Below the pieces are notes generated by a model. That model saw only the letters and a program-made list of their open reading frames with translations. It was not told the DNA's origin and ran no database searches. Below are positions 13,322 to 63,920 of a stretch of DNA of 64,000 nucleotides, piece by piece. The position numbers and the translations under genes were made by a program. Each line of letters opens with the position of its first letter. Position 1 is the stretch's first letter. Origin of the DNA: an uncultured Rhodospirillaceae bacterium (GTDB taxonomy: Bacteria > Pseudomonadota > Alphaproteobacteria > Rhodospirillales > UBA2165); NCBI GenBank assembly GCA_913020445.1, contig CAJWAR010000013.1, forward strand, positions 13,226 through 77,225, read 5' to 3'.

Positions 13322-16300
13322 ATGGCTGATGAAACACTCACTGGTGCAGGTGGTCGCGACAATTTGAATATTGGAGCAGACGGCGAAGATAATGCACCTG
13401 AATCTTTTCTTGTTGAGGCCAATTCGAGCGATGCGGTAACGCTGCCGGATGGTTTTAACTTTGGTGATGCAAAATTTGAGCCTTCCGGACCAGACCTCGT
13501 TCTGACATCGCCGGATGGCAAACAAGTTGTTATCCAGGACTACTACGAACAAGATCCTCCCCCCGATCTGCATACCCCCGTAGGCGGCGAATTGGCTGGC
13601 TCCACTGCCGTTCGTCTGGCCCAGACAAATGCTCCGACGCAAGGTCAATTTGCGCAGGCTGCCCCCTCAGCCGATGCCCAGCCTATTGGCCAGGTCGAAA
13701 GTGTTTCCGGCACGGTGACTGCCATCCGTGCCGATGGTACGCGTGTTGAACTGCAGGTTGGTGATCCGGTTTTCCAAGGTGATGTTATGGAATCGGGAGC
13801 CAATGGCGCCGTAGGTGTCGTGCTGGCTGATGAAACCACTTTCTCGATGGCTGAAAACGGCCGCATGGTACTGGACGAAATGGTCTACGATCCGGGTACC
13901 CAGGAAGGCAACATTTCGATGTCGGTTCTCAAAGGCGTGTTTACCTTTGTGTCCGGTCAGGTTGCCAAGGTTGACCCCGACGCCATGGTTCTTAAAACAC
14001 CGGTGGCGACGATCGGTATTCGTGGTACGCAGGTTGGTATTGATCTAAGTGGTGAAGATCCCAACGGTATGAAAGTCGTTTTGATGGAAGAATCAGACGG
14101 CTTTGTCGGCGAAGTTGTGATTGCCAATAACGCTGGCATTCAGATTCTGAACCTGCCGGATCAAGGCGCCAGCGTTGCTAGTTCTAACACTGCGCCTTCA
14201 GAACCGCGTGTTTATAATCGCGCAGAAATTTCCGAATCTTTCCGTAGCGCGTTGGAATCACTGCCGACCACAGTTGGCACTGGTAACAATTATGGTGCCG
14301 ATGATCAGGAAAAAGAAGAGGAAGAACAGGAAGAACAGGAAGAACAGGAAGAGGAAGAAGGCGGAGAAGAGCAGGCTGAAGGCGAAGAATCTGGAGAAGA
14401 TGAGTTAGCCGAAGGCGAAGAAGGTGAGGGCGAAGGCGAAGAAGATTTAGATGACTTTGAAACCGCTGCCGGCGAAGGAGAAGAAGAGATAACCGACGAA
14501 GAAGCCGCTGCTGCCGCTGCAGCTGCACAGGCTGCTGCCGAAGCCGCTGCTGCCGAAGCTGCCGCCGCCGAAGCTGCTGCCGAAGCTGCCGCCGCCGCCG
14601 AGGCTGCCGCCGAAGCCGCTGCTCAAGCTGCCGCCGATGCCGCTGCCCAAGCTGCCGCCGAAGCTGCCGCCAGGGCCGCCGCCGCCGCCGCTGCTGCCGA
14701 AGCAGCCCGGTTAAAGGCCATTCAGGATGCTATTGATGCGGAAAATGCCGTGGCGGATACAGCTACGGTCTCGATTGAAGCTGCTGCCGGTGATGAAGAT
14801 GGAGAAATTGCGCTCGCCATCAGCGCCGGTATATCCGGATCTTCAACTGATGAAGTTCAAAGCATCAATATCACTAATATTCCGGATGGTTCGACACTGA
14901 CCTATCAAGATGCAAGTGGTGCCGATCAAACAATCTCAATTAGCGACGGTAGGGCCACACTTTCGCCAGCTCAATTGAGCGGCTTATCGATTACCCCGCC
15001 CTTGGATGAAAGTGCTGACTTTGCGCTATCGGTAAGCGCAACAAGTGTTGATCCGGACTCCGGCGTAACTGCGACAAGTGGTTCGGTTGGATTGGGAGTT
15101 ACCGTTGATGCGACAGTTGAGCCACCGGTTGTTGCTACAAATATTTCCATCGGCGACGAAGATACGGCAATTCCGGTCGATATCTCAATCGCCAATGTTG
15201 AAGCAGATGGCACCGTCACCAGCGTCACAATCAGCGGCATTCCGGAAGGCTCCGTCCTGATGAGCGGCGGTGAAGCGCATTCCTTAACTGGTCCTGATGC
15301 GAACGGATTTTATACTGCTGAAATCAGGCCTGACCAAGTCGATGGCCTGACCATTACGCCGCCGCAAGATGATGCGCACGATTTCTCGCTAAGCATTACC
15401 GCAACAGCAACGGATATTGATCCTGATATTATTGCCGAACATGCAGCGCTGGAAGTGGCCGCGACTGATGCAAGGGACGCCGCCGATGCAGCAAGAACGG
15501 CTGCTACTGAAGCACAAACCGCTGCCGATGATGCAGCAACCGTTTCAGAAGATGCTGCCACTGCATTGCAAGAAGCGATCGATAATGATGCACCTCAAGA
15601 AGAAATTGACGACTTGCAAGCAGCGGCGGACGCTGCTGCCGAAACGGCTACTGATTTGCAAACCGCGGCCGATACTGCAGATGAGCAGGCGACGGCGCTG
15701 GAAACGGCTGCCGACGAAGCCGAATCAGATGCTGCTGCATTGGCGCCAGCTGCCGCGGCCGCTACTGTGGTCGCCGCCGCTGAAGCTGCTCAAGTTGCTG
15801 CCGATGAAGCTGCTCAGGCAGCAGAGACGGCCGCCAGCGAACTTACCGTTGCCATCCAAGACGCCACTGATGCCTCTATTGCGGCTTCAGATGCTGCCTT
15901 AGCTTCAGCTGCAGCCGACGTTGCCTTGGCTGAAGCAATAGAAAATGAGGCTGACGAAGAAGAAATTGCCGAATTGCAATTGGCCGCTGATGCTGCAGCT
16001 GAGGCGGCTTTGGAAGCAGCCGCTACTGCCCAGGCGGCGGCCGATGCGGTTATTGATGCTCAAGCCAACAGTGAAAGCACCGCAACAGCTGCGACCAATG
16101 CGCAAGCTGTGGCCGATCTGGCCGCTGCCGATGCGGTCATCGCTGTCATCGAAGCCGATGAAGCGGAAGTTGACGGTTTGGTTACCAACACCAGTAAACC
16201 GATGGCGTTGGCTGTAACGGTCGATGCCACTGTTGATGCACCGGTTGTTACTCCGACCGCGGCGTCAGGCGATGAAGATACGGCAATCGATATCGATTTC

Positions 16301-19300
16301 ACGGCAACTGTTGATACCGAAGGTATTGCCGATGGCGAGTTAACGTCGGTAGAAATTAGTGGCATTCCAGTGGGTTCCGTTTTAACTGCTGATGGTACGT
16401 CGATGACGATTACCAACGGCAGTGTAACCTTGAACCCGGATCAGCTGGCTAATGTTCAGATTACCCCGCCCGAAGATGATGCCAATGATTTCACTGTACA
16501 GGTGAGAGCCACTGCAACGGATATCGATCCCGATTTGCTTATCGCCTCCGAAGATGCCGATGCGGCGCTGGCAGCTGCTATCACCGCTGAAGCAGACGCA
16601 ACAACTGCAGCCACTGCCGCCGCAGATGCCGCGACTGCTGCTGCTGATGCTGCCACTGCCGCCGCTGACGCCGCCGCCGAAGCCGCGACGATTGCCGCCG
16701 ACGCCGCGACGGCGCTCCAAGAAGCGATCGATAATGATGCGCCGCAGGAAGAAATTGATGCCTTGCAAATAGCCGCTGATGACGCCGAGGCAACTGCTGC
16801 TGAATTGCAAACCACTGCTGAAACTGCGGCACAGGCGAGTACCGATGCGGCGGATGCCGAAACTGCTGCTAATCAGGCATTGACTGATGCTCAAACAACT
16901 CTCAGTGAGGCTACCACCGCCGCCGCCGATGCTGCCGACGCGGTTACCAACGGCTATATTACCAACACCAGTGATCCGGTCGATCTCGACGTGACAGTAA
17001 GTGCGGTTGCCGATGTGCCGGACGTCACGGTGACTGCCGCTACAGGCGATGAAGATGCGGCGATCCCGTTGGATATTTCGGCCACCGGCGATTTCCCGGA
17101 TGATACGCTCGAGAGTTTTACCATCAGCGATATTCCGGCAGGTTCCGTGCTGATGAGCGGCGATACAGAAATAACCTTGACTGGTCCGGATTCAGAGACT
17201 GGTTTTTACAGTGCTGTGCTGTCGCCTGATCAAGTAACGGGTCTGACTATTACGCCACCTGCCGATGATGCCAATGATTTTGCCCTGCAGGTGAGTGCGA
17301 CGACATCTGACACTGATCCCGATACCAAAGATCAGGTTTTTGCCACCAGTGCACCAATTGCGTTAGCCGTTAGTGTTGCGGCCACGGTTGATGCGCCGGA
17401 TGTAGGTGTGACAGCGGCTGTCGGTGATGAAGATACCGCCATTGATATTGATTTCACGGCCTCCGTCGAAGCAACGGATGGTGACTTGCTGTCGGTTGCA
17501 ATCAGCGACATTCCAGTTGGCTCCGTTGTGACCGTTGATGGTACAGAGATGACGATTACAAACGGCACGGTTACCTTGACTCCAGATCAATTGGCGAATG
17601 TGCAAGTTACACCACCGCTAGATGACGCGGATGAATTTACATTGCAAGTTAGTGCGACGGCGACAGATACCGATCCCGATACCAGGATTGTGGTAACCAA
17701 CACCAGTGATCCGATTAATCTTGACGTCACGGTGAATGCCACGGGCGATGTTTCCGTTGATGTAAGAGATAATATAATTGACGAGGATTCGGGGCCGATG
17801 GTGCTGGATCTGACGGCGACAATCTCCGATATGGATGGTTCCGAGACACTTGCAGAAGTTGTCATTACTTTTGATGAAGTGCCGGAAGGTTTGGTCGTTA
17901 CTGGTGGCACCTTGGTCGGTAACGTTTTGACCATCCCAGCTGCCAATGTTGATTCGGTAACAATCGAAACACCTGAAAATTGGTATGGTGTTCTGGTCGG
18001 CTCAGCAATTGCCTACTCAAATGAAGGTGAAAGCTTATCCGACGGATTTACGATCACCATCAATGCGGTTGATGATGCACCAGAGGTAACGATCAATACC
18101 GGCGCGTCTATTGGCGAAGGCGAATTGGCAACAGTAACAGCCCAGATGCTGGATACCACCGATGTCGACACTTCTGATGACAATTTGACCTATACGGTAA
18201 GCGACAGTGGCACCGGCACGGTGCTGGTCGATGGCGTTGTGGCCACGACTTTCACCCAAGCTCAGTTGAATGCCGGCCTGGTGTCATATCAACATGATGG
18301 CACGGAAAATGAAGCAACCTCCTTCACCTTCACCGTAACCGATGGCACGACGATAGTTGGCCCGGAAACCTTCAACTTTGTCGTCAGCGACGGCAATATC
18401 GCACCGGTCGCTACCGACGATGTCGACACGGTTGGTGACGATATTGGTGATATTACCTCCGGCGACGTGTTGACCAACGATTTTGATCTTGATGGTGATG
18501 TCTTGAGCGTCACCCAGGTCGAATTTGAAGGCACGGTCTATACCTTCCCGGAAGGCGAAACCTCGCTCACCATCGAAGGAGATATCGGTACGCTGACCAT
18601 GAATAGCGACGGTACCTATGATTTCGTCAATAACGAAGGCATTAATGAAGGCACTGGTGAATTTGAATGGGCTGAAGGAACGCCGGATTGGGTTGATCCC
18701 TCAGAACAGCAGGAGCTTGATCCTGTTCAAGTCAACCAGGAAAATCTGACCATGCCGGAAGGTGGCGAATCCGTCACTGTGACTTTCCAAGGTGAAGCGG
18801 CCGGTTACCACAATGTGGTTGGTTTCTACAAAATTGATGCCGACGGCAATCCCTATGAACCACAGATTGCCTGGGACGACGCGTCACAGCAGGGCAGCGG
18901 CGGCGACTTAATTCCAGGCGAGTCTCAATTTACCATTGATGATTTGGGACCCGGCGAAAGTTTTGGTTTCTTTATCATTAAAAATGGCGCTAACGAATAC
19001 CCGTGGATCGACGACGTTCCCGATAACCATTACTTCGAGTTTAGTGCCGACGGTGAGTTGATCGAATACAACGAGGCAGGAAATCCGGTTGGTCAATCCG
19101 AAGGCGATGGCGACGATGATGACAACGAAGGCCATAATATCGACGTCGACGATATCTTTCATGCCGTTGACAACAATCTGACTGACAGTCTTTTAAATAC
19201 CGATAACATCACTCATACCAATTCCGGTATTGATCCCGAAACTGGTGATTTGATGATCGGTTTCGAAGACCTCTATGGCGGTGGCGACGAAGATTATAAC

Positions 19301-22300
19301 GATCTGATGTTCTCCGTTGAATATGAAGGAACACCGATCCCTGCTGAGGATGTCTTTACCTACACGGTGAGCGATGGCGAATTCACCGATACGGCTAATC
19401 TGACGCTTACGGTTGAACATGACAATGACGCGCCGGTCGCAATTAACGATTCCGGTTCGACCGATGAAGATTCCTCGGTGATTGTGGATGTCTTGGCGAA
19501 TGACACGGATGCCGATGACAATGACGTGCTGACGGTGACGGATGTCAGCCTGCCGGCTGGCGTTGACGGCACCGTGGAAATCGTTGAAATCGACGGTGTC
19601 ACGCAAGTGAAATTTACGCCAGGTGACAGTTTCGATGCTCTAAATACAGGTGACACGGATCAGGTTGAAATCACTTACACTGTTTCTGATAGCGAAGGCT
19701 TAACCGATACAGCTGTTGCGACGGTTACAATCACCGGCACCAATGATGGCCCGGTAGCAGAAGCAGTTATCGGCAGTGCCGGCGAAGATGATTTGTCTAT
19801 GACGGTCGATATTGCCGATCAGATCAGCGATCTCGATCACACTGACGCTGAATTGGCCATTTCAATCAATTTTGATGACGATGATGATAGCGATGTTGAT
19901 GTCGATTGGGATGTTAGCATCGTCGGTACAGAAGTTACTTTTACCCCGCCGGAAGACGCGTTTCAGTATTTAAATGAGGGCGAAACGGCGACCGATACCT
20001 TCACCTATACGGTTACTGATCCGGAAGGTGCTTCGGCCACCAATACCGTGACTTTGACAATTACCGGCTCTAATGACGTGCCGACAATTACCGGTGATAC
20101 CACTGGCGCAGCGACGGAAGATAGCGTTCTGACCGTGGATGGCCAGCTAAACATCGTTGATCCGGATACCGGTCAATCTCAGTTTGATGCGGTGTCTGAT
20201 GAAGTCGGGTCTTACGGTTCATTCTCAATGGATGCCAATGGCAACTGGACCTACGATTTAGATAATAACGCAGATATAGTTCAATCTTTGCCGGCTGGCG
20301 AGATCGTGACCGAGACTTTCACCGTGACCTCTGTCGATGGCACGGCTTCGGAAACAGTCACAGTGACCATTACCGGCACCAATGATGTGCCGAACATTAC
20401 CGGCGATTCCACTGGCGCAGTGACGGAAGACAGCGTTCTGTCAGTAGTTGGCCAGCTGAATATCATTGATCAAGATACTGGTGAATCTCAGTTTGATGCG
20501 GTTTCCGGTGAGGTCGGTTCATACGGATCATTCTCGATGGATGCGGCTGGCAATTGGACCTACGATTTAGACAATAATGCCGATGCGGTACAAGCTTTGC
20601 CGGCTGGCGAAGTCGTGACCGAGACATTCACCGTAACCTCTGTCGATGGCACTGCTTCGGAAACCGTTACCGTGACAATTACCGGCACCAATGACGTGCC
20701 GGTAATTACCGGTGATTCCACCGGCGCAGTGACGGAAGATAGCGTTCTGACCGTCGATGGCCAGCTGAATATTGTTGATCCGGATACCGGTGAATCTCTG
20801 TTTGATGCGGTTTCCGGTGATGCCGGTACATACGGTTCTTTCTCGATGGATGCGGCTGGCAATTGGACCTACGATTTAGACAATGATGCTGAAGCTGTCC
20901 AGGCTTTGGGTGTTGGCGACAGTGTAACCGAGACTTTTTGGGTGACCTCGGTTGATGGTACGGCGACGGAAGCTGTTTCAATTACCATCAATGGCACCAA
21001 TGACGCGCCAGAAGTATCGGGTGTTTTGGTGTACACCATGAATGAAGATGGTTCCTTGACCATCACCGAAGATCAATTGCTGTCCAATGCCAGCGATGTT
21101 GAAGGTGATAGTCTGAGCATCTCTAATCTGCAGACCGCTGCAGAAAATGGCACTATCACGGATAATGGCGATGGCACGTGGACTTATAATCCACCTGCGG
21201 ATTTCAATGGTCCGATCGCGTTTTCTTATGATATCAGTGATGGCACGGATACTGTGACTGCCGGAGCAATTGTTGATATTCATGCCGTTAATGATGCGCC
21301 GGATGCGGTTGACGATGTATTGGCGAGTGTTGCCGAAGATACATCCTTTACCTTCACGGCAGATGATTTACTCGGCAATGACACCGATGTTGATGGTGAT
21401 ACGCTCAGTATTATGGATATTGGTCAGCCTGATCATGGTTCCATTACCGACGATGGCAACGGCAATTACACTTATACACCGGAAGACAACTATAATGGCC
21501 CGGTCAGCTTTACCTATACTGCAACCGATGGCACCAGTGGTCATTCCTTTGTCAGCAATGACAGCCTCGCGACGGCCCAGGATATTGGCCGCGATAGTTT
21601 CGGCGTTGGTGAAGATGCGCTGGTTGATGATGACAGTCTGCCGCGTGTTCGGATTGAAGGGGCCGTTGACGAACCTGGCGATGTCGATTATTTCTCGTTT
21701 ACGCTACAGGACGGAGAGCAACTGCACCTCAATATAGATTCGGAAAATCAAAGTGACTCCGTTGACGCCTTAATCTTAATCTATGATGAAGCAGGCAATA
21801 TCGTCGCCTCCGTGGACGACTCTTTCGGCTCGATGGATCCATTTGGTACCTTTACGCCAACCGAAGGCGGCACCTATACGGTCGCCGTTCAGGCTTTCCC
21901 TTGGCAAAATGTTGAAGGTGCCACGGAAGAACAACTTGCTCTGGCCAGCGGCGATTATGTGCTAAATGCCAGTGTTGTGCCAACCGAGGACTCCACCGGT
22001 TTCGGTGACGCGCCGGCGACGATTTCCGATGTTGATACGGCAACTGATTCTGCATCTGTTACGTTTGATGTGGACTCAGTTAATGATGGCCCGGAAGCCG
22101 AAGCAGTTGTCGGCAGCGCTGGCGAAGATGATTTGTCTGTAACAGTGAATGTCGCTGATGAAGTAAGCGATGTTGACCATACTGATTCAGAACTTGTTAT
22201 CGCGGCAAATATGGGATCGACCGGCTGGACTGCAAACGTTGATGGCATGGATATCACGTTCACACCTCCAGAAGGCGCGTATAATCATTTAGCAGACGGC

Positions 22301-25300
22301 GAAACGGCCGTAGAAACATTTACCTATACGGTTACTGATCCCGACGGTCTGGAATCAACCAATACAGTTGTTATGACCATCAATGGCGCCAATGACGGCT
22401 TCACAGTTGACGGTAGCGTTGCGGCTGGCACCTTGGAAGATGATGGCGTTGCCTTCAATATTTTTGATGCCATTACGATCACCGATCCTGATGCTACTGA
22501 CACCCACTCAATTAACGGCTACACGCAACCGCAAAATGGTACGGTAACAGTCTCTGCTTTGGGTGCAGTTGTGTTCTCCCCAAATATCGATCCAACAACC
22601 GGCGAATCCGTTTTTAATACGATGGGTGTTGGTGATACGGCGACCGAAACCTTCACCTACACAGTGGATGACGGCAGTGGTGGAACGTCGATTGAAACCG
22701 CAACGATCACCATCACCGGCACCAACGATGCGCCGGTCGTAACAACAGCAATTCAAGACGGCACCACCAGTGAAGATCAAGCCTACAGTTATGATGCTTC
22801 GGCTAATTTCGCCGATGTTGATAATGGCGACTCGTTGATTTATTCCGCGACATTGGATGATGGTTCTGCGCTGCCGGATTGGATTTCAATTGATCCTGTA
22901 ACCGGTGAAATTTCCGGCGTGCCGGATAATGATGATGTTGGTTCGTTGAATATCAAAGTAGTTGCTACCGATGAGTCCGGTTGGGCGGCCGATGACACCT
23001 ATCAACTTGATGTCATCAACACCAATGACGGCCCAGTTGCGGTTAATGATATCGGCACCGTGGATGAAGATGCTTCAGTGACGCTGGATGTTCTGGCGAA
23101 TGACACCGATGTAGATGGTATCGCGCTGTCGGTAACAGATGTGAGCCTGCCGGAAGGCGTCGATGGCACGGTTGAAATCGTTGAAGTTGATGGTGTGACC
23201 CAGGTTAAATTTACCCCGGGTGAGACCTATAACAGCTTGGCGGTTAATGAATCCGAAGACGTTATCATTTCTTATACGATTTCCGACGGCGCTGGCGGTA
23301 GCGATTCAGCGATCGCTACTGTGACAGTTACCGGTTCCAATGATGGCTTTACTGTTATTGGCGATGCTGCCGACGATATGTTGGAAGACGAGCTGTCGAC
23401 GACGTTTAACGTTTTCGATGACATCACCGTAAGCGATGGTGATGCGTCCGATACTCACAGCATCACCACCTATTCTCAACCTGACAATGGTACGGTTGAA
23501 GTGCTGACTGACGGTACCGTGACGTATACGCCACCGGCCGGCCACTTTAATAGCCTGGCCGAAGGTGAAACGGCAATTGAGTCCTTCACCTATACGATCG
23601 TTGACGGTAATGGCGCTGAGTCCCTGGAGACCGCGACAGTTACCATCACCGGTACCAATGACGGCCCGGTTGCAATCGGTGGATCGGAATCCGACCTTTT
23701 AGAAGATATAGCATTCGCCGGTCAATTGGCGGCGACAGATGTTGATGGTGATACTTTGACCTTCTCCTTGGCCGATAATGGTGGCCCCGCCCATGGCTCC
23801 ATCACGATTGGTGAAGACGGCAGCTACTCTTACCAACCTGATCTGAATTACAGTGGCACCGACAGCTTTACTTTCGAGGTCAGCGATGGCCACGGTGGTA
23901 CAGATACCGCAACAGTTACGCTTTCTGTCACCGGTGTTGCCGATGATCCGATCGTTGTTGTCAGCAATGAAACTGGCAATGAGGATCAGTGGACCCAGCT
24001 AAATCTGGATGCGGATCTAACTGACACGGATGGTTCTGAAACTCTCAGCGTATTGATCTCAAACGTACCGGACGGTGCTTTGTTGAACCCGGGTACTAAT
24101 TTGGGTGGCGGCGAATGGACAGTTTCTCCGGAACAGCTGCATCTGGTTTGCATCCTGCCGCCGGAAAACTTTAACGGCGACATCAATCTAACCTTGGCGG
24201 CGACATCGACTGAAGCCGATGGCGACATTGCGACAGTTGAGCAAAACTTCACGGTAACAGTTGATCCGGTCAATGACGCGGCGACAATTACCGGTGATGA
24301 TACAGGTTCCGTCACCGAAGACAGTATTTTAGCAGTATCTGGTGATTTGGATGTAACCGATCCGGATACCGGCGAAAGCATCTTTGATGCCGCAAATGCA
24401 GTTGGCGATTACGGCTCCTTCACGATGGATGTGAACGGTAACTGGACCTATAACCTCGATAACGACAATGCCGATGTTCAGGCCTTGGGTGTTGGTGAAA
24501 GTATGTCTGAGACCTTTACGGTGTCGTCGGTTGACGGAACCGCGAGTGAAACGGTTACCGTTACGATCAATGGTACCAATGACGGCCCGGTTGCGGTTGA
24601 TGACAGCAATACTGTTGATGATACCGCCGATTCAGTTATTGGCTCGGTGACGGCCAATGACAGCGATGTCGATGGTGATACGTTGAATGTGACCGAAGTA
24701 GAGTTCAATGGCACGACCCATAGTTTCCCGGAAGGGGAAGACAGTCTTACCATCGTCGGTGATCACGGTACCTTGGTGATGAATTCCGATGGCAGCTATG
24801 AATATACCCGAAGCGGCGAAGGTGGTGGTACGGCCAGCGAAATTGTCGAAGCCGGCGGCTATGGTTCCAGTGAAGCTGACTGGACGAGTGCCGGGGTTTC
24901 CATTTCGGCCTTTGATTTCGGCACGTCCTATACCGATGGTAATGGCGACTTCGATGCCTCCTTGGCTGACGACAGTGTTGTCGTTACCAGTCAAGGTCTG
25001 GGCGTAGAAGGCACGCAAGGGGGTGCGCAAGCATCCACGCAAATCGAGTATGATCCGAATTCTGGTGATTCCGAAGCGCTAGCTCTGACCTTTGATACCA
25101 GTGTCTCAAGTGCGGATGTGACTGTTGCCCGCCTCTATCACGGCGAAGGCTCCGACGGTGAGCAGGGCATGTGGCAAGCCTATGATGCCGACGGTAATTT
25201 GGTCGGCAGCGGCGAAATTGATGATGAAACGGTTGCTTATGATGGCAGCAGCAATGTCGGCACCCTGAACATTGATCTTGGTGGCACGGCTTTCCAGACC

Positions 25301-26944
25301 GTGGTCTTCACGGCGACCCAAATGTCAGGCAGCCAAAGTGACTTTAAAGTCCAAGGCGTTGAATATGAAACAGTTGGAACCTTGGTCGGTGACGGCGGTG
25401 AAGACGTCTTCACTTATACGGTCGCCGATGATCAAGGAGCTACAGATACCGCTGCTTTGACCATCACCGTTGATGGTGATGATGATCCCGCTGATGCGCC
25501 TGTACTGACGATCTCGGCAACCTTGGTTGAAGCAATTCCAACCGAAACGCTATTTACCAGTACGTTTGATGACGGCGCTGCTGATGGCTTCTCCTATGTT
25601 GATGACGCTTTCCGCGACACCGATGAAGGCGATTACGCCAAAGGCCAGATTAAAGATGGTGGACATCACGATGACGATGGGCGCTTACGGGTCGAGCTTG
25701 GGGGTAAAGATGATGACGATATTACCGACATGTCTGGCGGGTTTGAGCAAAGCTTTACCGTTGATGAAGATGGTGCGGGCTCCATTACGTTCACTTATAA
25801 AATCGATATGGACAGCCATTATGAAGATGACGAATACGCCGAAGTATTGGTCAGCATTGATGGCGAACTTGTCAATATTGCCGGTAATGACTATGTCACG
25901 CGTGTCTCCGGTGGTGATGATATCGGTTGGACGACAGTAACCATCGACCTTGGAGATTTGGATGCCGGTGATCATACTGTTATGATTGGTGGCTATAACA
26001 ATAAGAAGACCTATCACAACGAGAAAACCAAAATCGATTTTGATGATGTTTCTTTGAATGTCGGATCAAGCGATCCGGGCAGCACCTTTGAAGTCGATAT
26101 TACCGCAGCATTGACGGATGATACAGAAACCTTGTCAGCGGTCACGATTGACGAGCTGCCGGAAGGTGTCGCGTTTGTCGGCATTGACCAAAATGACGAT
26201 GGCACATGGACGCTGACAGCGGATGATCTTGTTGATTTGACCATGACGGTGCCGCCGGGTACCGATGATTTTGATATTAGCGCGTCGGTTACCTCGACGG
26301 AAGACAATGGAAATTTTGCCACGACAACGACCTCTATCACTGTTGATGTCCCGGTAATTGATGCCGAGGACCATGATCGTATGGGCAGCTCATCTGACGA
26401 TACCATTGTCGGCATGGATCGCGACGACGATGCCGATGCTGATGCCGGAGGTGATGATATCCTCTACGGCGGCGCCGGTGATGATACCATCGACGGCCAA
26501 GGCGGCGATGATGTGATATTCGGCGGCTCCGGTGTTGACTATATTGATGGCGGTGATGGCGGCGACGTTATCTACGGCGGCAGCGACGACGATGTTATTA
26601 TCGGTGGTGAAGGCAACGACCAGCTTTATGGTGGCTCCGGCGATGATGAATTTATCTTCAGCCTCGGCGATGGCGAAGACACTGTCTTCGATTTTGATAA
26701 TGGCGACGTTCTGACCTTCGAAGGCATCGATCTCAATGACGGCGATGCTGTCGAGTTCGATACCGATGGCGATGATGTTGTTGTCACGGTTATCGGCAGC
26801 AACAATGAGCAGTCTAAAGTGACGTTGAAGGATGCTGCCAAAGACATGGATGATGATGAACGCCAAAATGTCGGAGATGGCTACTCTGTTACCGATACCG
26901 GTGACGGCTCCATCAATATCATTGTCGATACTCCCGGCGGCTAA
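13322..26944 (+). CDS. Giant (4540 aa) RTX-type, T1SS-secreted repetitive adhesin (LapA/BapA class)
   Basis: Single uninterrupted 13,623-nt ORF with GAGGGGG upstream of the ATG. Layout, N- to C-terminal: an N-terminal region with a FecR-like beta-rich segment (GQVESVSGTVTAIRADGT...TIGIRGTQVGI); a polyacidic linker with TAAG; poly-Ala/Glu; five 'GDEDTAI...ITPP.DD..DF.L.V.AT' domains; many VNDAP/TNDGP cadherin/VCBS-like units; a DUF4114-like segment (GFEDLYGGGDEDYNDLMFSVEY); a PPC-like segment (DVDYFSFTL...GTYTVAVQAF); a dystroglycan-type cadherin-like segment; and C-terminal GGxGxD nonapeptides with a T1SS-type tail. Confidence 0.93.
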   Translation: MADETLTGAGGRDNLNIGADGEDNAPESFLVEANSSDAVTLPDGFNFGDAKFEPSGPDLVLTSPDGKQVVIQDYYEQDPPPDLHTPVGGELAGSTAVRLAQTNAPTQGQFAQAAPSADAQPIGQVESVSGTVTAIRADGTRVELQVGDPVFQGDVMESGANGAVGVVLADETTFSMAENGRMVLDEMVYDPGTQEGNISMSVLKGVFTFVSGQVAKVDPDAMVLKTPVATIGIRGTQVGIDLSGEDPNGMKVVLMEESDGFVGEVVIANNAGIQILNLPDQGASVASSNTAPSEPRVYNRAEISESFRSALESLPTTVGTGNNYGADDQEKEEEEQEEQEEQEEEEGGEEQAEGEESGEDELAEGEEGEGEGEEDLDDFETAAGEGEEEITDEEAAAAAAAAQAAAEAAAAEAAAAEAAAEAAAAAEAAAEAAAQAAADAAAQAAAEAAARAAAAAAAAEAARLKAIQDAIDAENAVADTATVSIEAAAGDEDGEIALAISAGISGSSTDEVQSINITNIPDGSTLTYQDASGADQTISISDGRATLSPAQLSGLSITPPLDESADFALSVSATSVDPDSGVTATSGSVGLGVTVDATVEPPVVATNISIGDEDTAIPVDISIANVEADGTVTSVTISGIPEGSVLMSGGEAHSLTGPDANGFYTAEIRPDQVDGLTITPPQDDAHDFSLSITATATDIDPDIIAEHAALEVAATDARDAADAARTAATEAQTAADDAATVSEDAATALQEAIDNDAPQEEIDDLQAAADAAAETATDLQTAADTADEQATALETAADEAESDAAALAPAAAAATVVAAAEAAQVAADEAAQAAETAASELTVAIQDATDASIAASDAALASAAADVALAEAIENEADEEEIAELQLAADAAAEAALEAAATAQAAADAVIDAQANSESTATAATNAQAVADLAAADAVIAVIEADEAEVDGLVTNTSKPMALAVTVDATVDAPVVTPTAASGDEDTAIDIDFTATVDTEGIADGELTSVEISGIPVGSVLTADGTSMTITNGSVTLNPDQLANVQITPPEDDANDFTVQVRATATDIDPDLLIASEDADAALAAAITAEADATTAATAAADAATAAADAATAAADAAAEAATIAADAATALQEAIDNDAPQEEIDALQIAADDAEATAAELQTTAETAAQASTDAADAETAANQALTDAQTTLSEATTAAADAADAVTNGYITNTSDPVDLDVTVSAVADVPDVTVTAATGDEDAAIPLDISATGDFPDDTLESFTISDIPAGSVLMSGDTEITLTGPDSETGFYSAVLSPDQVTGLTITPPADDANDFALQVSATTSDTDPDTKDQVFATSAPIALAVSVAATVDAPDVGVTAAVGDEDTAIDIDFTASVEATDGDLLSVAISDIPVGSVVTVDGTEMTITNGTVTLTPDQLANVQVTPPLDDADEFTLQVSATATDTDPDTRIVVTNTSDPINLDVTVNATGDVSVDVRDNIIDEDSGPMVLDLTATISDMDGSETLAEVVITFDEVPEGLVVTGGTLVGNVLTIPAANVDSVTIETPENWYGVLVGSAIAYSNEGESLSDGFTITINAVDDAPEVTINTGASIGEGELATVTAQMLDTTDVDTSDDNLTYTVSDSGTGTVLVDGVVATTFTQAQLNAGLVSYQHDGTENEATSFTFTVTDGTTIVGPETFNFVVSDGNIAPVATDDVDTVGDDIGDITSGDVLTNDFDLDGDVLSVTQVEFEGTVYTFPEGETSLTIEGDIGTLTMNSDGTYDFVNNEGINEGTGEFEWAEGTPDWVDPSEQQELDPVQVNQENLTMPEGGESVTVTFQGEAAGYHNVVGFYKIDADGNPYEPQIAWDDASQQGSGGDLIPGESQFTIDDLGPGESFGFFIIKNGANEYPWIDDVPDNHYFEFSADGELIEYNEAGNPVGQSEGDGDDDDNEGHNIDVDDIFHAVDNNLTDSLLNTDNITHTNSGIDPETGDLMIGFEDLYGGGDEDYNDLMFSVEYEGTPIPAEDVFTYTVSDGEFTDTANLTLTVEHDNDAPVAINDSGSTDEDSSVIVDVLANDTDADDNDVLTVTDVSLPAGVDGTVEIVEIDGVTQVKFTPGDSFDALNTGDTDQVEITYTVSDSEGLTDTAVATVTITGTNDGPVAEAVIGSAGEDDLSMTVDIADQISDLDHTDAELAISINFDDDDDSDVDVDWDVSIVGTEVTFTPPEDAFQYLNEGETATDTFTYTVTDPEGASATNTVTLTITGSNDVPTITGDTTGAATEDSVLTVDGQLNIVDPDTGQSQFDAVSDEVGSYGSFSMDANGNWTYDLDNNADIVQSLPAGEIVTETFTVTSVDGTASETVTVTITGTNDVPNITGDSTGAVTEDSVLSVVGQLNIIDQDTGESQFDAVSGEVGSYGSFSMDAAGNWTYDLDNNADAVQALPAGEVVTETFTVTSVDGTASETVTVTITGTNDVPVITGDSTGAVTEDSVLTVDGQLNIVDPDTGESLFDAVSGDAGTYGSFSMDAAGNWTYDLDNDAEAVQALGVGDSVTETFWVTSVDGTATEAVSITINGTNDAPEVSGVLVYTMNEDGSLTITEDQLLSNASDVEGDSLSISNLQTAAENGTITDNGDGTWTYNPPADFNGPIAFSYDISDGTDTVTAGAIVDIHAVNDAPDAVDDVLASVAEDTSFTFTADDLLGNDTDVDGDTLSIMDIGQPDHGSITDDGNGNYTYTPEDNYNGPVSFTYTATDGTSGHSFVSNDSLATAQDIGRDSFGVGEDALVDDDSLPRVRIEGAVDEPGDVDYFSFTLQDGEQLHLNIDSENQSDSVDALILIYDEAGNIVASVDDSFGSMDPFGTFTPTEGGTYTVAVQAFPWQNVEGATEEQLALASGDYVLNASVVPTEDSTGFGDAPATISDVDTATDSASVTFDVDSVNDGPEAEAVVGSAGEDDLSVTVNVADEVSDVDHTDSELVIAANMGSTGWTANVDGMDITFTPPEGAYNHLADGETAVETFTYTVTDPDGLESTNTVVMTINGANDGFTVDGSVAAGTLEDDGVAFNIFDAITITDPDATDTHSINGYTQPQNGTVTVSALGAVVFSPNIDPTTGESVFNTMGVGDTATETFTYTVDDGSGGTSIETATITITGTNDAPVVTTAIQDGTTSEDQAYSYDASANFADVDNGDSLIYSATLDDGSALPDWISIDPVTGEISGVPDNDDVGSLNIKVVATDESGWAADDTYQLDVINTNDGPVAVNDIGTVDEDASVTLDVLANDTDVDGIALSVTDVSLPEGVDGTVEIVEVDGVTQVKFTPGETYNSLAVNESEDVIISYTISDGAGGSDSAIATVTVTGSNDGFTVIGDAADDMLEDELSTTFNVFDDITVSDGDASDTHSITTYSQPDNGTVEVLTDGTVTYTPPAGHFNSLAEGETAIESFTYTIVDGNGAESLETATVTITGTNDGPVAIGGSESDLLEDIAFAGQLAATDVDGDTLTFSLADNGGPAHGSITIGEDGSYSYQPDLNYSGTDSFTFEVSDGHGGTDTATVTLSVTGVADDPIVVVSNETGNEDQWTQLNLDADLTDTDGSETLSVLISNVPDGALLNPGTNLGGGEWTVSPEQLHLVCILPPENFNGDINLTLAATSTEADGDIATVEQNFTVTVDPVNDAATITGDDTGSVTEDSILAVSGDLDVTDPDTGESIFDAANAVGDYGSFTMDVNGNWTYNLDNDNADVQALGVGESMSETFTVSSVDGTASETVTVTINGTNDGPVAVDDSNTVDDTADSVIGSVTANDSDVDGDTLNVTEVEFNGTTHSFPEGEDSLTIVGDHGTLVMNSDGSYEYTRSGEGGGTASEIVEAGGYGSSEADWTSAGVSISAFDFGTSYTDGNGDFDASLADDSVVVTSQGLGVEGTQGGAQASTQIEYDPNSGDSEALALTFDTSVSSADVTVARLYHGEGSDGEQGMWQAYDADGNLVGSGEIDDETVAYDGSSNVGTLNIDLGGTAFQTVVFTATQMSGSQSDFKVQGVEYETVGTLVGDGGEDVFTYTVADDQGATDTAALTITVDGDDDPADAPVLTISATLVEAIPTETLFTSTFDDGAADGFSYVDDAFRDTDEGDYAKGQIKDGGHHDDDGRLRVELGGKDDDDITDMSGGFEQSFTVDEDGAGSITFTYKIDMDSHYEDDEYAEVLVSIDGELVNIAGNDYVTRVSGGDDIGWTTVTIDLGDLDAGDHTVMIGGYNNKKTYHNEKTKIDFDDVSLNVGSSDPGSTFEVDITAALTDDTETLSAVTIDELPEGVAFVGIDQNDDGTWTLTADDLVDLTMTVPPGTDDFDISASVTSTEDNGNFATTTTSITVDVPVIDAEDHDRMGSSSDDTIVGMDRDDDADADAGGDDILYGGAGDDTIDGQGGDDVIFGGSGVDYIDGGDGGDVIYGGSDDDVIIGGEGNDQLYGGSGDDEFIFSLGDGEDTVFDFDNGDVLTFEGIDLNDGDAVEFDTDGDDVVVTVIGSNNEQSKVTLKDAAKDMDDDERQNVGDGYSVTDTGDGSINIIVDTPGG
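14300..14503 (+). repeat. Polyacidic low-complexity linker containing the TAAG motif (14462..14473)
   Basis: In aa 327-394, 41 of 68 residues are D/E by my count. The stretch includes (GAAGAACAG)x3. T381-A382-A383-G384 is encoded by ACC GCT GCC GGC. Confidence 0.9.
14504..14749 (+). repeat. Poly-Ala/Glu (AAAE-type) low-complexity tract of about 80 aa
   Basis: AAAAAAAAQAAAEAAAAEAAAAEAAAE...AAARAAAAAAAAEAARLKAIQDAIDAENA, encoded by GCN/GAA-rich DNA. Confidence 0.9.
15431..16175 (+). repeat. Ala/Asp/Glu/Thr-rich helical insertion 1 in the adhesin
   Basis: About 248 aa between '...ATATDIDPD' and 'VTNTSKPMALAVTV'. Contains ALQEAIDNDAPQEEIDDLQAAADAAAE and the variant LAEAIENEADEEEIAELQLAADAAAE. 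Confidence 0.8.
16535..16950 (+). repeat. Ala-rich helical insertion 2 in the adhesin
   Basis: About 138 aa between '...ATATDIDPD' and 'ITNTSDPVDLDVTV'. Repeats ALQEAIDNDAPQEEIDALQIAADDAE, and the DNA is near-identical to 15570..15620. Confidence 0.8.
20072..20998 (+). repeat. Three tandem 309-bp (103-aa) VCBS/cadherin-like units
   Basis: The NDVP anchors at 20072, 20381, 20690 and 20999 are exactly 309 bp apart. Units 1 and 2 differ at 13 of 103 residues by my count. A diverged fourth copy lies at about 24280-24590. Confidence 0.9.
26452..26655 (+). repeat. RTX Ca2+-binding nonapeptide repeats (GGxGxDxxx)
   Basis: LYGGAGDDTIDGQGGDDVIFGGSGVDYIDGGDGGDVIYGGSDDDVIIGGEGNDQLYGGSGDDEFIF. Confidence 0.92.
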
Positions 26945-61228: not shown

Positions 61229-62479
61229 TTAGGCCGCTACAGCCTGCAATCCTTGATGCCGGCCGCTGCGGCGGATATGCAGGAAAAATAGCGTTAAAAT
61301 AAGAAGATTTATTACGCCGGCGATACTGCCATTAGCATAGGACCATACATAATCACCGGTCAGATCAAAGGCGATGCCGCCTTGCCAGCCACCGAGCCCC
61401 ATGCCGACCCAGCCGGTCGCGCCGACAACCGCCATGCCGCGGGCGAGAAAATTAGCTGGCACCATCATACGCACGCAGACCAGAAAGGAGGCCATGACGC
61501 CGGAGAAAGCGAGGCCGAATGTCATCGCCAGGGCATAGATTAAAATCGTATTTTCGACATGTGGAAACATGAATATGACCGCAGTTTGCAGCACCGACAT
61601 ACAAATATAGCTTTGCAAGGCGCCGATATGATCCGCCAGTTTTCCCCCCAACACCCGCCCGAAAGCGCCGGTTATCATAAGCGCAAAGAAGACCGTAACG
61701 GCTTTCTCCGGCGTCATGCCATGATCCGTCAGCAACGGCACCAAATGAACAATCGGCACCGCCATGGCGATACAGCAGAACACCACCGCTGTCCCTATCC
61801 AGGCGACAACGACCGTCGGCGCCAAGGGAAAGGGTGTGCCGTCTCGTTGTTTCGGCGCTTCATGGGATTGCGCGGATTTCAGCCGGGGTGAATCCCGGAC
61901 GAATAACGCAATCGGGATGGTCAGGATGATATATGCGATGCCCAAGGTTGAATAGGCGGTCTGCCAATCATGTTGATTAATCAGATAGCGGACGATAACG
62001 GGTACGGTGCCTTGGCCGACAGCGCCACCGGCAACCGACAAGCCGATCGCCAGACCGATATTGCGGGTAAACCACAGGCCGACATTGGCATAAAGCAGCC
62101 CGGTCACCGTGGCGTGGCCAAACGCGCCAAACAGGAAGTAATAAAAATAGAACTCAACAATACTGTCCATGGTGCTGAGCAGTAACAGCGGGAAACCTAA
62201 TATTACCGCGCCGAATAGGACGATCCATCTGGTGCCGTAACGATCAGCGAGAATGGCCCAAAAAATGCCGGTAAAAGCGGTCGCCAGGGTGATTGCCGAA
62301 TAGCCGAAAGACAGGCTGCCGCGTGACCAGCCAAACTCGGCCTCGAGTTCTTTTAAGAAAACGCCGACAGATGACAACACGCCAAAGGATATCGCGCTGA
62401 GGGTGAAGGTTATAAAAACCATAACCCAGCCATATTCTTCGCGTTCGGTAAATTTTGTGTCTGATATAATGTTTGGCAT
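61229..62479 (-). CDS. MFS transporter
   Basis: 416 aa with about 12 TM segments and an ADRYGTR loop motif. Confidence 0.85.
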   Translation of the reverse strand: MPNIISDTKFTEREEYGWVMVFITFTLSAISFGVLSSVGVFLKELEAEFGWSRGSLSFGYSAITLATAFTGIFWAILADRYGTRWIVLFGAVILGFPLLLLSTMDSIVEFYFYYFLFGAFGHATVTGLLYANVGLWFTRNIGLAIGLSVAGGAVGQGTVPVIVRYLINQHDWQTAYSTLGIAYIILTIPIALFVRDSPRLKSAQSHEAPKQRDGTPFPLAPTVVVAWIGTAVVFCCIAMAVPIVHLVPLLTDHGMTPEKAVTVFFALMITGAFGRVLGGKLADHIGALQSYICMSVLQTAVIFMFPHVENTILIYALAMTFGLAFSGVMASFLVCVRMMVPANFLARGMAVVGATGWVGMGLGGWQGGIAFDLTGDYVWSYANGSIAGVINLLILTLFFLHIRRSGRHQGLQAVAA

Positions 62480-62512: not shown

Positions 62513-63052
62513 TCAAGCAGCGTTTAACGGCAGTGCTTTCAATGTCCGCATGAACAATTGCAGCCCGTAATGAAAGGCGATGAAGGCGCCGAGTTCCATG
62601 ATCTCAGGTTCAGAATAGAATGTTTTGCCGAGATCATAAAAAGCGGCATCGACTTTGGTCGGTTCGGTATACATCAGCTTGGCGTAAGTGAGGGCCCATT
62701 TTTCCGCCTTAGAAAACTGCGGGTCATTTTCGAAGCCGCCGCAGCCGGCTTCGATCCGCTCTTCGGAAAGACCACTGTCCATCGCCTTTTTGGACCTGAG
62801 CGCAGCAAAATATTCATCCTTGGCAAGGCGGGCCAGCCGCACGCGAATAATTTCTTTTAAGGCGTGATCGACATTGCCGAGCGCATGGGATTGATACATC
62901 GCATCAAACAAGGCCTCCGCGTAACCCGGCGCATGGGCCATGATCTGCAGAAAGAGGGTGTCCGGCACCATGAGTTCTTGCGCCAGCTCAAGCCGGGTTT
63001 GAAATTTTTCCGGATCGAGCTGATCTAAGGGGACGGGGTCAATAATTGCCAT
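62513..63052 (-). CDS. Carboxymuconolactone decarboxylase (CMD/AhpD-like) family protein, no Cys motif
   Basis: 179 aa. ...HALKEIIRVRLARLAKDEYFAALRS... aligns with the neighbouring gene but has DEYF where that gene has CNY[TGA]. Confidence 0.75.
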   Translation of the reverse strand: MAIIDPVPLDQLDPEKFQTRLELAQELMVPDTLFLQIMAHAPGYAEALFDAMYQSHALGNVDHALKEIIRVRLARLAKDEYFAALRSKKAMDSGLSEERIEAGCGGFENDPQFSKAEKWALTYAKLMYTEPTKVDAAFYDLGKTFYSEPEIMELGAFIAFHYGLQLFMRTLKALPLNAA

Positions 63053-63061
63053 ACCTATTTC

Positions 63062-63730
63062 CTATTCCGCCGCACTATCTTGTGTTTTTTCTGGGGCGCT
63101 ATCGAGTGCGCGCTGCAACGGCCCTTTGGTGTGTGAGATCGGCTTGTCACCATAAATACGGGCTGATTCTTCCTGGTCGACCAAGCGGCCATCAGGGGTG
63201 AACATCGGATAAAAACCGAGCGTGCCGAACCAGGTGTGGTAGCCGATATTAAAGCCGATGAAGGAGCCAAGCTCGACGATCTCTTCAATCGTGTAATGTT
63301 TTTTCAGCTCATCATAAAAAGCTTCATCGACCAAATCGGGATCGGTATCCATCAAATCGGAATATTTGAGCGCGATTTTCTCAGCCGGTGTGAAGTTATC
63401 CGAGGCCGCGTAATTGTCGATCCCGTCATCGATCATTTCTTCGGTTAATCCCTGCTGCTTCGCCGAAGCAGACCGGACATTACCTCAATAATTACAATCG
63501 GCGGTTCGCGAAAGCTGGACGCGGATAATCTCCTTCAGCTTATGATCGACGATGCCGGTATTAAACACCGTACCCCAGGCAAAATACATTGAGGCCGACA
63601 GTTCCGGATTGTGGCCGAGCATGGCGTGGAAAGCGGGGTCGGGTGCGCGGTGGCGCAGGCTTTTTTTGATAAAGCCGCCGAGCTTGGTTTTCTTAAGCTC
63701 TTCAATATCGAGCATGGTGATATTAGGCAT
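63062..63730 (-). CDS. CMD/AhpD-like protein with an in-frame TGA (candidate selenocysteine, C-N-Y-U) or a nonsense-disrupted gene
   Basis: ORFs 63485..63730 and 63062..63436 are in the same frame, separated only by TGA 63485..63487 plus 16 sense codons: ...KEIIRVQLSRTADCNY[TGA]GNVRSASAKQQGLTEEMIDDG... GAGGA RBS before ATG 63730. Only a weak RBS precedes the internal ATG 63436. Confidence 0.65.
63455..63471 (-). promoter_or_regulatory. SECIS-like hairpin 13 nt downstream of the in-frame UGA
   Basis: mRNA CUGCUUC-GGC-GAAGCAG (7-bp stem), extendable by C-G, C-G and U-G pairs across a small internal loop. Confidence 0.45.
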
Positions 63731-63920
63731 ATTTGTCCTCAGCGCGTTAATTACTTTAGACCAAATCTAAATCCGTTCTCCCGGCTTTACCAACAGAAAA
63801 TCGTCACAGTTGTGTGTGCGGGGGTTCCTTCAATAAGGGGACATGTTCTTGGCACTTCCTATCGACCTTTAATACGTTGGCCTAACGTGTCCCCGCTTAC
63901 GGTGTAGAAGTAGTTAATTC

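Follow-up and report, generated by a model that had tools for sequence, protein, structure and literature searches.

The closest described relatives of the gene reported here are marine selenoproteins predicted from metagenomic data. Zhang, Fomenko and Gladyshev (2005) described, among the selenoprotein families of the Sargasso Sea, a 'CMD domain-containing protein' with the sequence …CNYuGNVRSASAKQQGL… (PMC1088965), and the supplement of that paper lists AACY01716242 and AACY01688758, which read VDHKLKE[VI]IRVQLSRAADCNYuGNVRSASAKQQGLTEE… (PMC1088965). Near-full-length members appear in the supplement of the GOS study by Zhang and Gladyshev (2008) under 'AhpD-like 1', which that study places among its most abundant marine selenoprotein families; one of them, JCVI_READ_1558542, spans MPNISMIDI… to …FYPMFTP (PMC2398784). 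The family is entered in a 2026 review as 'CMD-like protein, PF02627, CxxU', with the 2005 paper as its source (PMC13188914). The family sequences given in the 2005 and 2008 papers and supplements were derived from short reads (PMC1088965, PMC2398784). In the published work searched, we found no report of selenium incorporation for any member of the family.

Insertion of selenocysteine (Sec) in bacteria depends on a SECIS element, of which that of E. coli fdhF, studied by the Böck laboratory, is an example: it is a stem-loop that lies inside the gene, immediately 3' of the UGA, and its small apical loop contains a G. Proteins of the AhpD type carry a CxxC redox motif, and in AhpD of Mycobacterium tuberculosis the His that follows this motif serves as a proton relay. 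The best sequence match of our protein among solved structures is Bmp8 (E = 2.7e-11, at an identity of only 24-25%), a thiol-dependent tetrabromopyrrole debrominase that has been proposed to dehalogenate its substrate by oxidising its own cysteines to a disulfide (PMC5577590).

Here we describe a gene on the minus strand of a 64-kb stretch of DNA from an uncultured Rhodospirillaceae bacterium, the whole of which is referred to below as the window. We put the probability that this gene encodes Sec, and specifies a single 222-residue selenoprotein of the CMD/AhpD fold, at roughly 93%. An earlier note, written from the letters of this DNA, had interpreted the gene as that of a selenoprotein, and this interpretation is supported by an alignment column occupied by TGA or Cys, by a hairpin under RNA-level selection and by SelB or tRNA-Sec beside the orthologue in five genomes. 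The gene is a further orthologue of the already-predicted family; the reading is correct, and the family has been known since 2005. The window protein is 76-79% identical to AACY01716242, JCVI_READ_1558542 and JCVI_READ_1510389 over 89-179 residues, shares with the marine sequences the identical CNYuGNVRSASAKQQGLTEE, the C-N-Y-U motif and PF02627, and differs from them in nothing essential. The statement in the same note that AhpD/CMD selenoproteins had been reported from the sea was right, down to the exact family, which appears in the supplements of both the Sargasso Sea (2005) and the GOS (2008) studies. The published passages and supplements searched yielded no mention of the paralogue, the gene fusion or the selB/selC linkage that are described below, nor of the family's broad occurrence among Burkholderiales of soil and groundwater.

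A reading frame divided by a single TGA

Read through, the gene yields a product of 81 residues, Sec and a further 140 residues, and the TGA is the sole interruption of the frame (Table 1). It lies three codons past Cys79, giving the motif C-N-Y-U. The N-terminus MPNITMLDIE is common to the window protein and to the homologues P0004 and P0005, and Pfam finds the CMD domain PF02627 in the read-through protein with a score of 36.4 bits (cut-off 23; E = 5e-9). The internal ATG that follows the TGA has no Shine-Dalgarno sequence. The earlier note had described one minus-strand frame split by the TGA alone, a read-through protein of about 222 residues, a good ribosome-binding site at the first ORF with none at the internal ATG, and an adjacent, colinear 179-residue paralogue; every one of these statements stood, with all coordinates exact. 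Fifty-two ORF pairs in the window are joined by a single TGA and, judged by eye, a redox-type motif lies at the TGA in the studied gene only.

Table 1. Features of the selenoprotein locus in the window and of Sec-machinery genes at orthologous loci (L numbers; positions are those of the locus named)
Feature	Position	Strand	Description	Basis
Predicted selenoprotein CDS	63062..63730	-	222 residues, Sec at 82, CMD/AhpD fold	Translation, Pfam, orthologues
Shine-Dalgarno-like GAGGA	63736..63740	-	5-nt spacer before ATG 63730..63728	Read from sequence
Cys79 codon TGT	63494..63496	-	First residue of C-x-x-U redox motif	Invariant in 81/81 sequences
In-frame UGA, predicted Sec82	63485..63487	-		TGA in 81/81; Cys in distant full-length homologues
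Arg86 codon	63473..63475	-	Four residues past Sec	Invariant
Candidate SECIS, upper stem-loop	63455..63471	-	7 bp CUGCUUC/GAAGCAG, apical loop GGC, starts 13 nt after UGA	
Candidate SECIS, extended	63448..63478	-	Adds 4-bp lower stem and 3x3 internal loop; weaker, lineage-dependent	MFE fold
Final stop TAG	63062..63064	-	End of selenoprotein gene	
Cys-less paralogue	62513..63052	-	179 aa, D-E-Y-F for C-N-Y-U; start 9 nt past selenoprotein stop	
MFS transporter	61229..62479	-	33 nt downstream of paralogue	Pfam MFS_1
tRNA-Sec, L053	3602..3696	-		
tRNA-Sec, L056	4819..4914	-		
tRNA-Sec, L063	4436..4530	-		
tRNA-Sec, L083	4176..4270	-		
SelB ORF, L056	4945..6582	-		
SelB ORF, L063	4545..6170	-		
SelB ORF, L036	29..1114	-		

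When one genome per species was scanned for orthologues, 80 orthologous loci (L005-L084) were obtained, and hence 81 sequences if the window gene is counted. The loci come from MAGs of Rhodospirillales, Hyphomicrobiales, Burkholderiales, Nitrospinaceae, Chloroflexota and Acidobacteriota. All 80 keep C-x-Y-TGA-G-N-V-R and are colinear with the window gene on both sides of the TGA, and the Cys79 position is as invariant as the TGA itself (81/81 for each). Dozens of more distant full-length homologues read C-x-[Y/F]-C-G-N-x-R-S, with the second Cys aligned with the TGA, so that the column holds either TGA or Cys. No Cys-form orthologue was present among the 80 species, and from these alignments the orthologous group appears to depend on Sec.

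The alternative that survives best, although we regard it as very improbable, is that the TGA is a true stop and that the products of two small genes, of 81 and 124 residues, combine into a split CMD protein. Gene callers do annotate the locus in this way, and most database entries are either C-terminal fragments of about 124 residues or N-terminal fragments of 81. In our protein search, the matches were mostly such C-terminal fragments, along with a few 'full-length' proteins with W at the TGA column; when 1.8 billion representative proteins were searched with a profile, the orthologues were broken at profile position 81/82. The fragments of about 124 residues exist because gene callers stop at the TGA. 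However, the amino acids encoded by the 16 codons that lie between the TGA and the internal ATG (GNVRSASAKQQGLTEE) are conserved, whereas the third positions of these codons vary freely, with H3 of 1.1-1.9 bits at Gly+1, Val+3, Arg+4, Gly+12, Leu+13 and Thr+14, and therefore these codons are translated. Moreover, the internal start is not conserved, the fragments beginning at MRSASAK, MIDEG or other points, and in the window it lacks a Shine-Dalgarno sequence. A split gene would also leave unexplained both the Cys that aligns with the TGA in homologues and the RNA-level constraint on the hairpin described below.

A second alternative, raised in the earlier note, is that the gene once encoded a CxxC CMD protein and became a pseudogene through a TGY-to-TGA nonsense mutation. 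Taken alone, the window could be read in this way, with its in-frame stop and no sel genes. Yet the identical TGA recurs in all 81 sequences, from several phyla, the 140 codons past it are intact and under purifying selection across the orthologues, and no close orthologue carries TGY; with the TGA and the frame beyond it conserved across phyla, a pseudogene is excluded for practical purposes.

The notion that UGA is decoded otherwise, through an alternative code (UGA as Trp or Gly) or through near-cognate readthrough stimulated by the hairpin, takes its support from the W that some pipelines place at this codon in public metagenome proteins (P0001-P0005, P0007), but we give it hardly any credence, since the DNA of one such protein (L087 161..775) reads TGA, homologues have Cys rather than Trp in the column, selB and selC adjoin orthologues, and a reassigned code is excluded because TGA serves as the ordinary stop of 9 of the 39 long ORFs of the window and as the terminator of this same gene in 37 of 79 orthologues. 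The W fits a gene call with translation table 4 on a short contig.

The downstream hairpin and the selenocysteine machinery

The hairpin that had been noticed 13 nt past the TGA (CTGCTTC-GGC-GAAGCAG) is present exactly there, and comparison across the orthologues shows it to be conserved under RNA-level selection, with invariant synonymous sites and a covarying pair. Its folding energy is unremarkable: the z-score is -1.08, 30 of 200 shuffled sequences fold as well, and the equivalent segment of the paralogue folds about as well on average (-14.0 vs -15.3 kcal/mol), and similarly in GC-rich genomes. We therefore rejected hairpin stability as evidence for a SECIS. The significance of the hairpin comes instead from comparison, and here the alignments argue strongly for a functional element: the TGA precedes it in every sequence, the invariant synonymous sites are confined to it, and one pair of its stem covaries.

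In the alignment of the 81 sequences, 49 conserved codons are four-fold or six-fold degenerate, and the 45 of them that lie outside the hairpin all vary, with H3 of at least 1.1 bits and a mean of 1.53. Within the stem and loop, the third positions of Ala+6 (GCT), Ser+7 (TCG) and Ala+8 (GCG) have zero entropy in 81/81 sequences, and that of Ser+5 is T or C, changing in step with its pairing partner. Across 71 distinct sequences, 98.4% of the cells of the 7-bp stem are paired, and pair 18:32 is C-G in 38, U-A in 31 and U-G in 2. Both the U-A and the C-G states are found within Nitrospinaceae, and therefore the switch was not a single ancient event; covariation is limited to this one stem pair and to few independent events. 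In the extended structure, RNAfold pairs 63478..63475 with 63451..63448; this 4-bp lower stem is weaker (77.8% paired across orthologues, with zero double changes), and we make no claim for its conservation. RNAalifold, run on the 81-sequence alignment, chose another structure, a 3-bp hairpin with a UUCG tetraloop, which we set aside; it reaches -1.6 vs -8.1 kcal/mol and leaves the 18:32 covariation unexplained. Rfam yielded neither a SECIS nor any other credible match.

Like the SECIS of the E. coli fdhF type, the stem-loop in the window lies within the coding sequence just 3' of the UGA and has a G in a small loop. It differs in that its sequence is unrelated, its 7-bp stem carries a 3-nt loop, GGC, and it shows no evident bulged U. 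A small apical loop with a guanosine is a common feature of bacterial SECIS elements as described in the 2005 study (PMC1088965), and both the spacing and the small loop, in which GGC supplies the apical G, fit that description. By the established bacterial mechanism, we suggest that the hairpin would act as a SECIS during translation and would recruit SelB-GTP with Sec-tRNA(Sec), so that Sec would be inserted at UGA82 and termination would not occur there.

The genes for this machinery were found beside orthologues. Either selB or tRNA-Sec, or both, lies within 3 kb of the orthologue in five loci, tRNA-Sec adjoining it in 4/80 loci and SelB in 5/80. In four Burkholderiales MAGs (L053, L056, L063 and L083), tRNA-Sec and selB stand immediately downstream of the gene pair formed by the selenoprotein gene and its paralogue, with tRNA-Sec 0.6-1.3 kb from the orthologue; in one alphaproteobacterial MAG (L036), selB lies just upstream of the pair. 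SelB was recognised in L056 and L063 by Pfam (Beta-barrel_SelB at 1e-30, and the SelB winged-helix domains), and in L053, L083 and L036 by tblastn. In the 64-kb window itself, ARAGORN found no tRNA gene, and tblastn with the SelB of L056 as query found no match. The precomputed Pfam annotation, which covers the window from about 17,400 to 64,000 and about 10 kb past its end, holds no selenium-related gene; it is made up mainly of beta-oxidation, transporter and regulator genes, with a few others. The organism of the window presumably has the Sec trait.

Other features of the window may be recorded here. The MFS transporter that follows the paralogue is present in only 10/80 orthologous loci, and we therefore regard its association with the pair as lineage-specific and not as part of a conserved module. 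An ORF of 4540 residues at 13322..26944 on the plus strand contains 12 bacterial cadherin-like and 13 Big_9 stretches, He_PIG and C-terminal RTX repeats, and looks like a giant secreted adhesin. From about 32600 to 53150, there is a dense array of genes for acyl-CoA dehydrogenases, enoyl-CoA hydratases, thiolases, AMP-ligases, ChsH2-like proteins and TRAP transporters, together with IclR regulators, which looks like a catabolic island for an acid. No link between this cluster and the selenoprotein gene is evident.

Fold, family assignment and public annotation

For the orthologue P0001 (82% identity), AlphaFold (AF2) gives a confident, all-helical model with a pLDDT of 87.7. Its best PDB matches are Bmp8, which is the top Foldseek hit, the AhpD-core 'peroxidase-related' proteins, and PA0269/AhpD of Pseudomonas aeruginosa. 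The AhpD-core structures (2PRR, 7XW1 and PA0269 as 2IJC/2O4D) share with the model the all-helical CMD/AhpD fold at TM 0.55-0.67, whereas AhpD of M. tuberculosis (1KNC) is a poor structural match, at a TM of about 0.4. The TGA sits at CxxC spacing, as the earlier note had claimed: in the column of C-N-Y-U, PA0269 has C-A-Y-C, placed likewise where the helix begins, and Bmp8 (PDB 6OHI/6OHJ) has C-M-Y-C, and the residue mutated in the C82A structure of Bmp8 aligns with Cys79. Hence, compared with the AhpD-type CxxC, the window protein would have Sec in place of the second Cys.

Cys79 and Sec82 would thus form a C-x-x-U centre at the CxxC position of AhpD-type proteins. This centre would be expected to cycle between the selenol/thiol and the selenenylsulfide states, and the protein is probably a thiol/selenol-dependent oxidoreductase, with peroxide reduction, disulfide reduction and reductive chemistry of the Bmp8 kind as candidate activities.

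Several features set the protein apart from AhpD. The His that in PA0269 lies four residues past the second Cys aligns here with the invariant Arg86, and the protein has an additional conserved stretch of about 55 residues at its C-terminus (…FYPMFxPDGRLVxQEESxRIYG…). The CxxC relatives and the paralogue likewise have Arg at the position of Arg86. Within about 10 kb on either side of the selenoprotein gene, there is no AhpC or peroxiredoxin gene. With Arg in place of His, no AhpC partner, and scores below cut-off for the AhpD models (TIGR00778, the AhpD core domain, 15.6 vs 27.8 bits; TIGR01926, 25.4 vs 81.8 bits), we do not assign the protein to the AhpD alkylhydroperoxidases that act as AhpC reductase.

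The other NCBIfam models fare no better. The best match, NF053654, a 'YciW-related (seleno)protein', scores 63.6 bits against a cut-off of 310, and NF041047 (the GSU3128 family) scores 20.6 against 110. Membership of NF053654, NF041047, TIGR01926, NF041537 or NF045649 was rejected, all scores being below the cut-offs, although the window protein belongs to the same superfamily as the first three and shares the CxxU theme with them. These scores fit the split annotation in public records, and NCBI records carry the gene as two 'hypothetical proteins'. The practical value of the present finding lies in annotation: the gene is split, or its UGA is read as Trp, and no NCBIfam model that we scanned reaches its cut-off.

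The Cys-less paralogue and the possible function of the pair

The paralogue encoded directly downstream is 36% identical to the selenoprotein and has a weak CMD match in Pfam; it does not have the conserved C-terminal extension of the selenoprotein. It follows the selenoprotein gene directly in 78/78 loci that extend far enough, across several phyla, and a MAFFT alignment shows D-x-Y-F in 76/79 paralogues. The two genes are probably co-transcribed, and the paralogue is likely to be a partner subunit of the selenoprotein, which probably works together with it.

In one SAR324 MAG (GCA_015231825.1, contig JADGAV010000003.1; L089 2749..4029), the selenoprotein and the paralogue are fused in an ORF of 426 codons, in which the in-frame TGA is retained as codon 82. 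Some 17 database matches of 276-371 residues, with partial coverage of the query, may be fusions of the same kind; the five long matches that we examined (P0006, P0008, P0009, P0010 and P0014) each consist of the C-terminal fragment and the paralogue, and a fusion is apparently present in several betaproteobacterial database entries. The pairing and the fusion suggest that the two proteins act as a single enzyme.

One could go further and propose an obligate two-subunit enzyme, in which the selenoprotein would be the catalytic subunit and the redox-dead paralogue the other, the pair possibly doing reductive chemistry on a small electrophile. We offer this tentatively, and consider it rather unlikely in this full form; it is suggested by the adjacency in all 78 loci, by the SAR324 fusion and by the lack of a Cys-form orthologue in 80 species. 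The pair could carry out reductive chemistry, given that the debrominase Bmp8 is the nearest relative of known structure. By analogy with the deiodinases, Sec could attack a halogen or a similar group, rather than serve in the detoxification of peroxide. Reductive chemistry of the Bmp8 kind is thus no more than a possibility, and a dehalogenase activity of the window selenoprotein is speculation; no bmp-type halogenase genes lie near the window gene, whose neighbours are beta-oxidation, cupin and transporter genes.

For biology, there is little in the gene itself that is new, since the 2005 work had already predicted the family together with its CxxU motif and its SECIS. The pairing with the paralogue and the fusion of the two are possibly unreported, and the pairing adds modest value. 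The invariable presence of a Cys-less paralogue beside the selenoprotein, together with their occasional fusion, provides a concrete handle on the function of the family.
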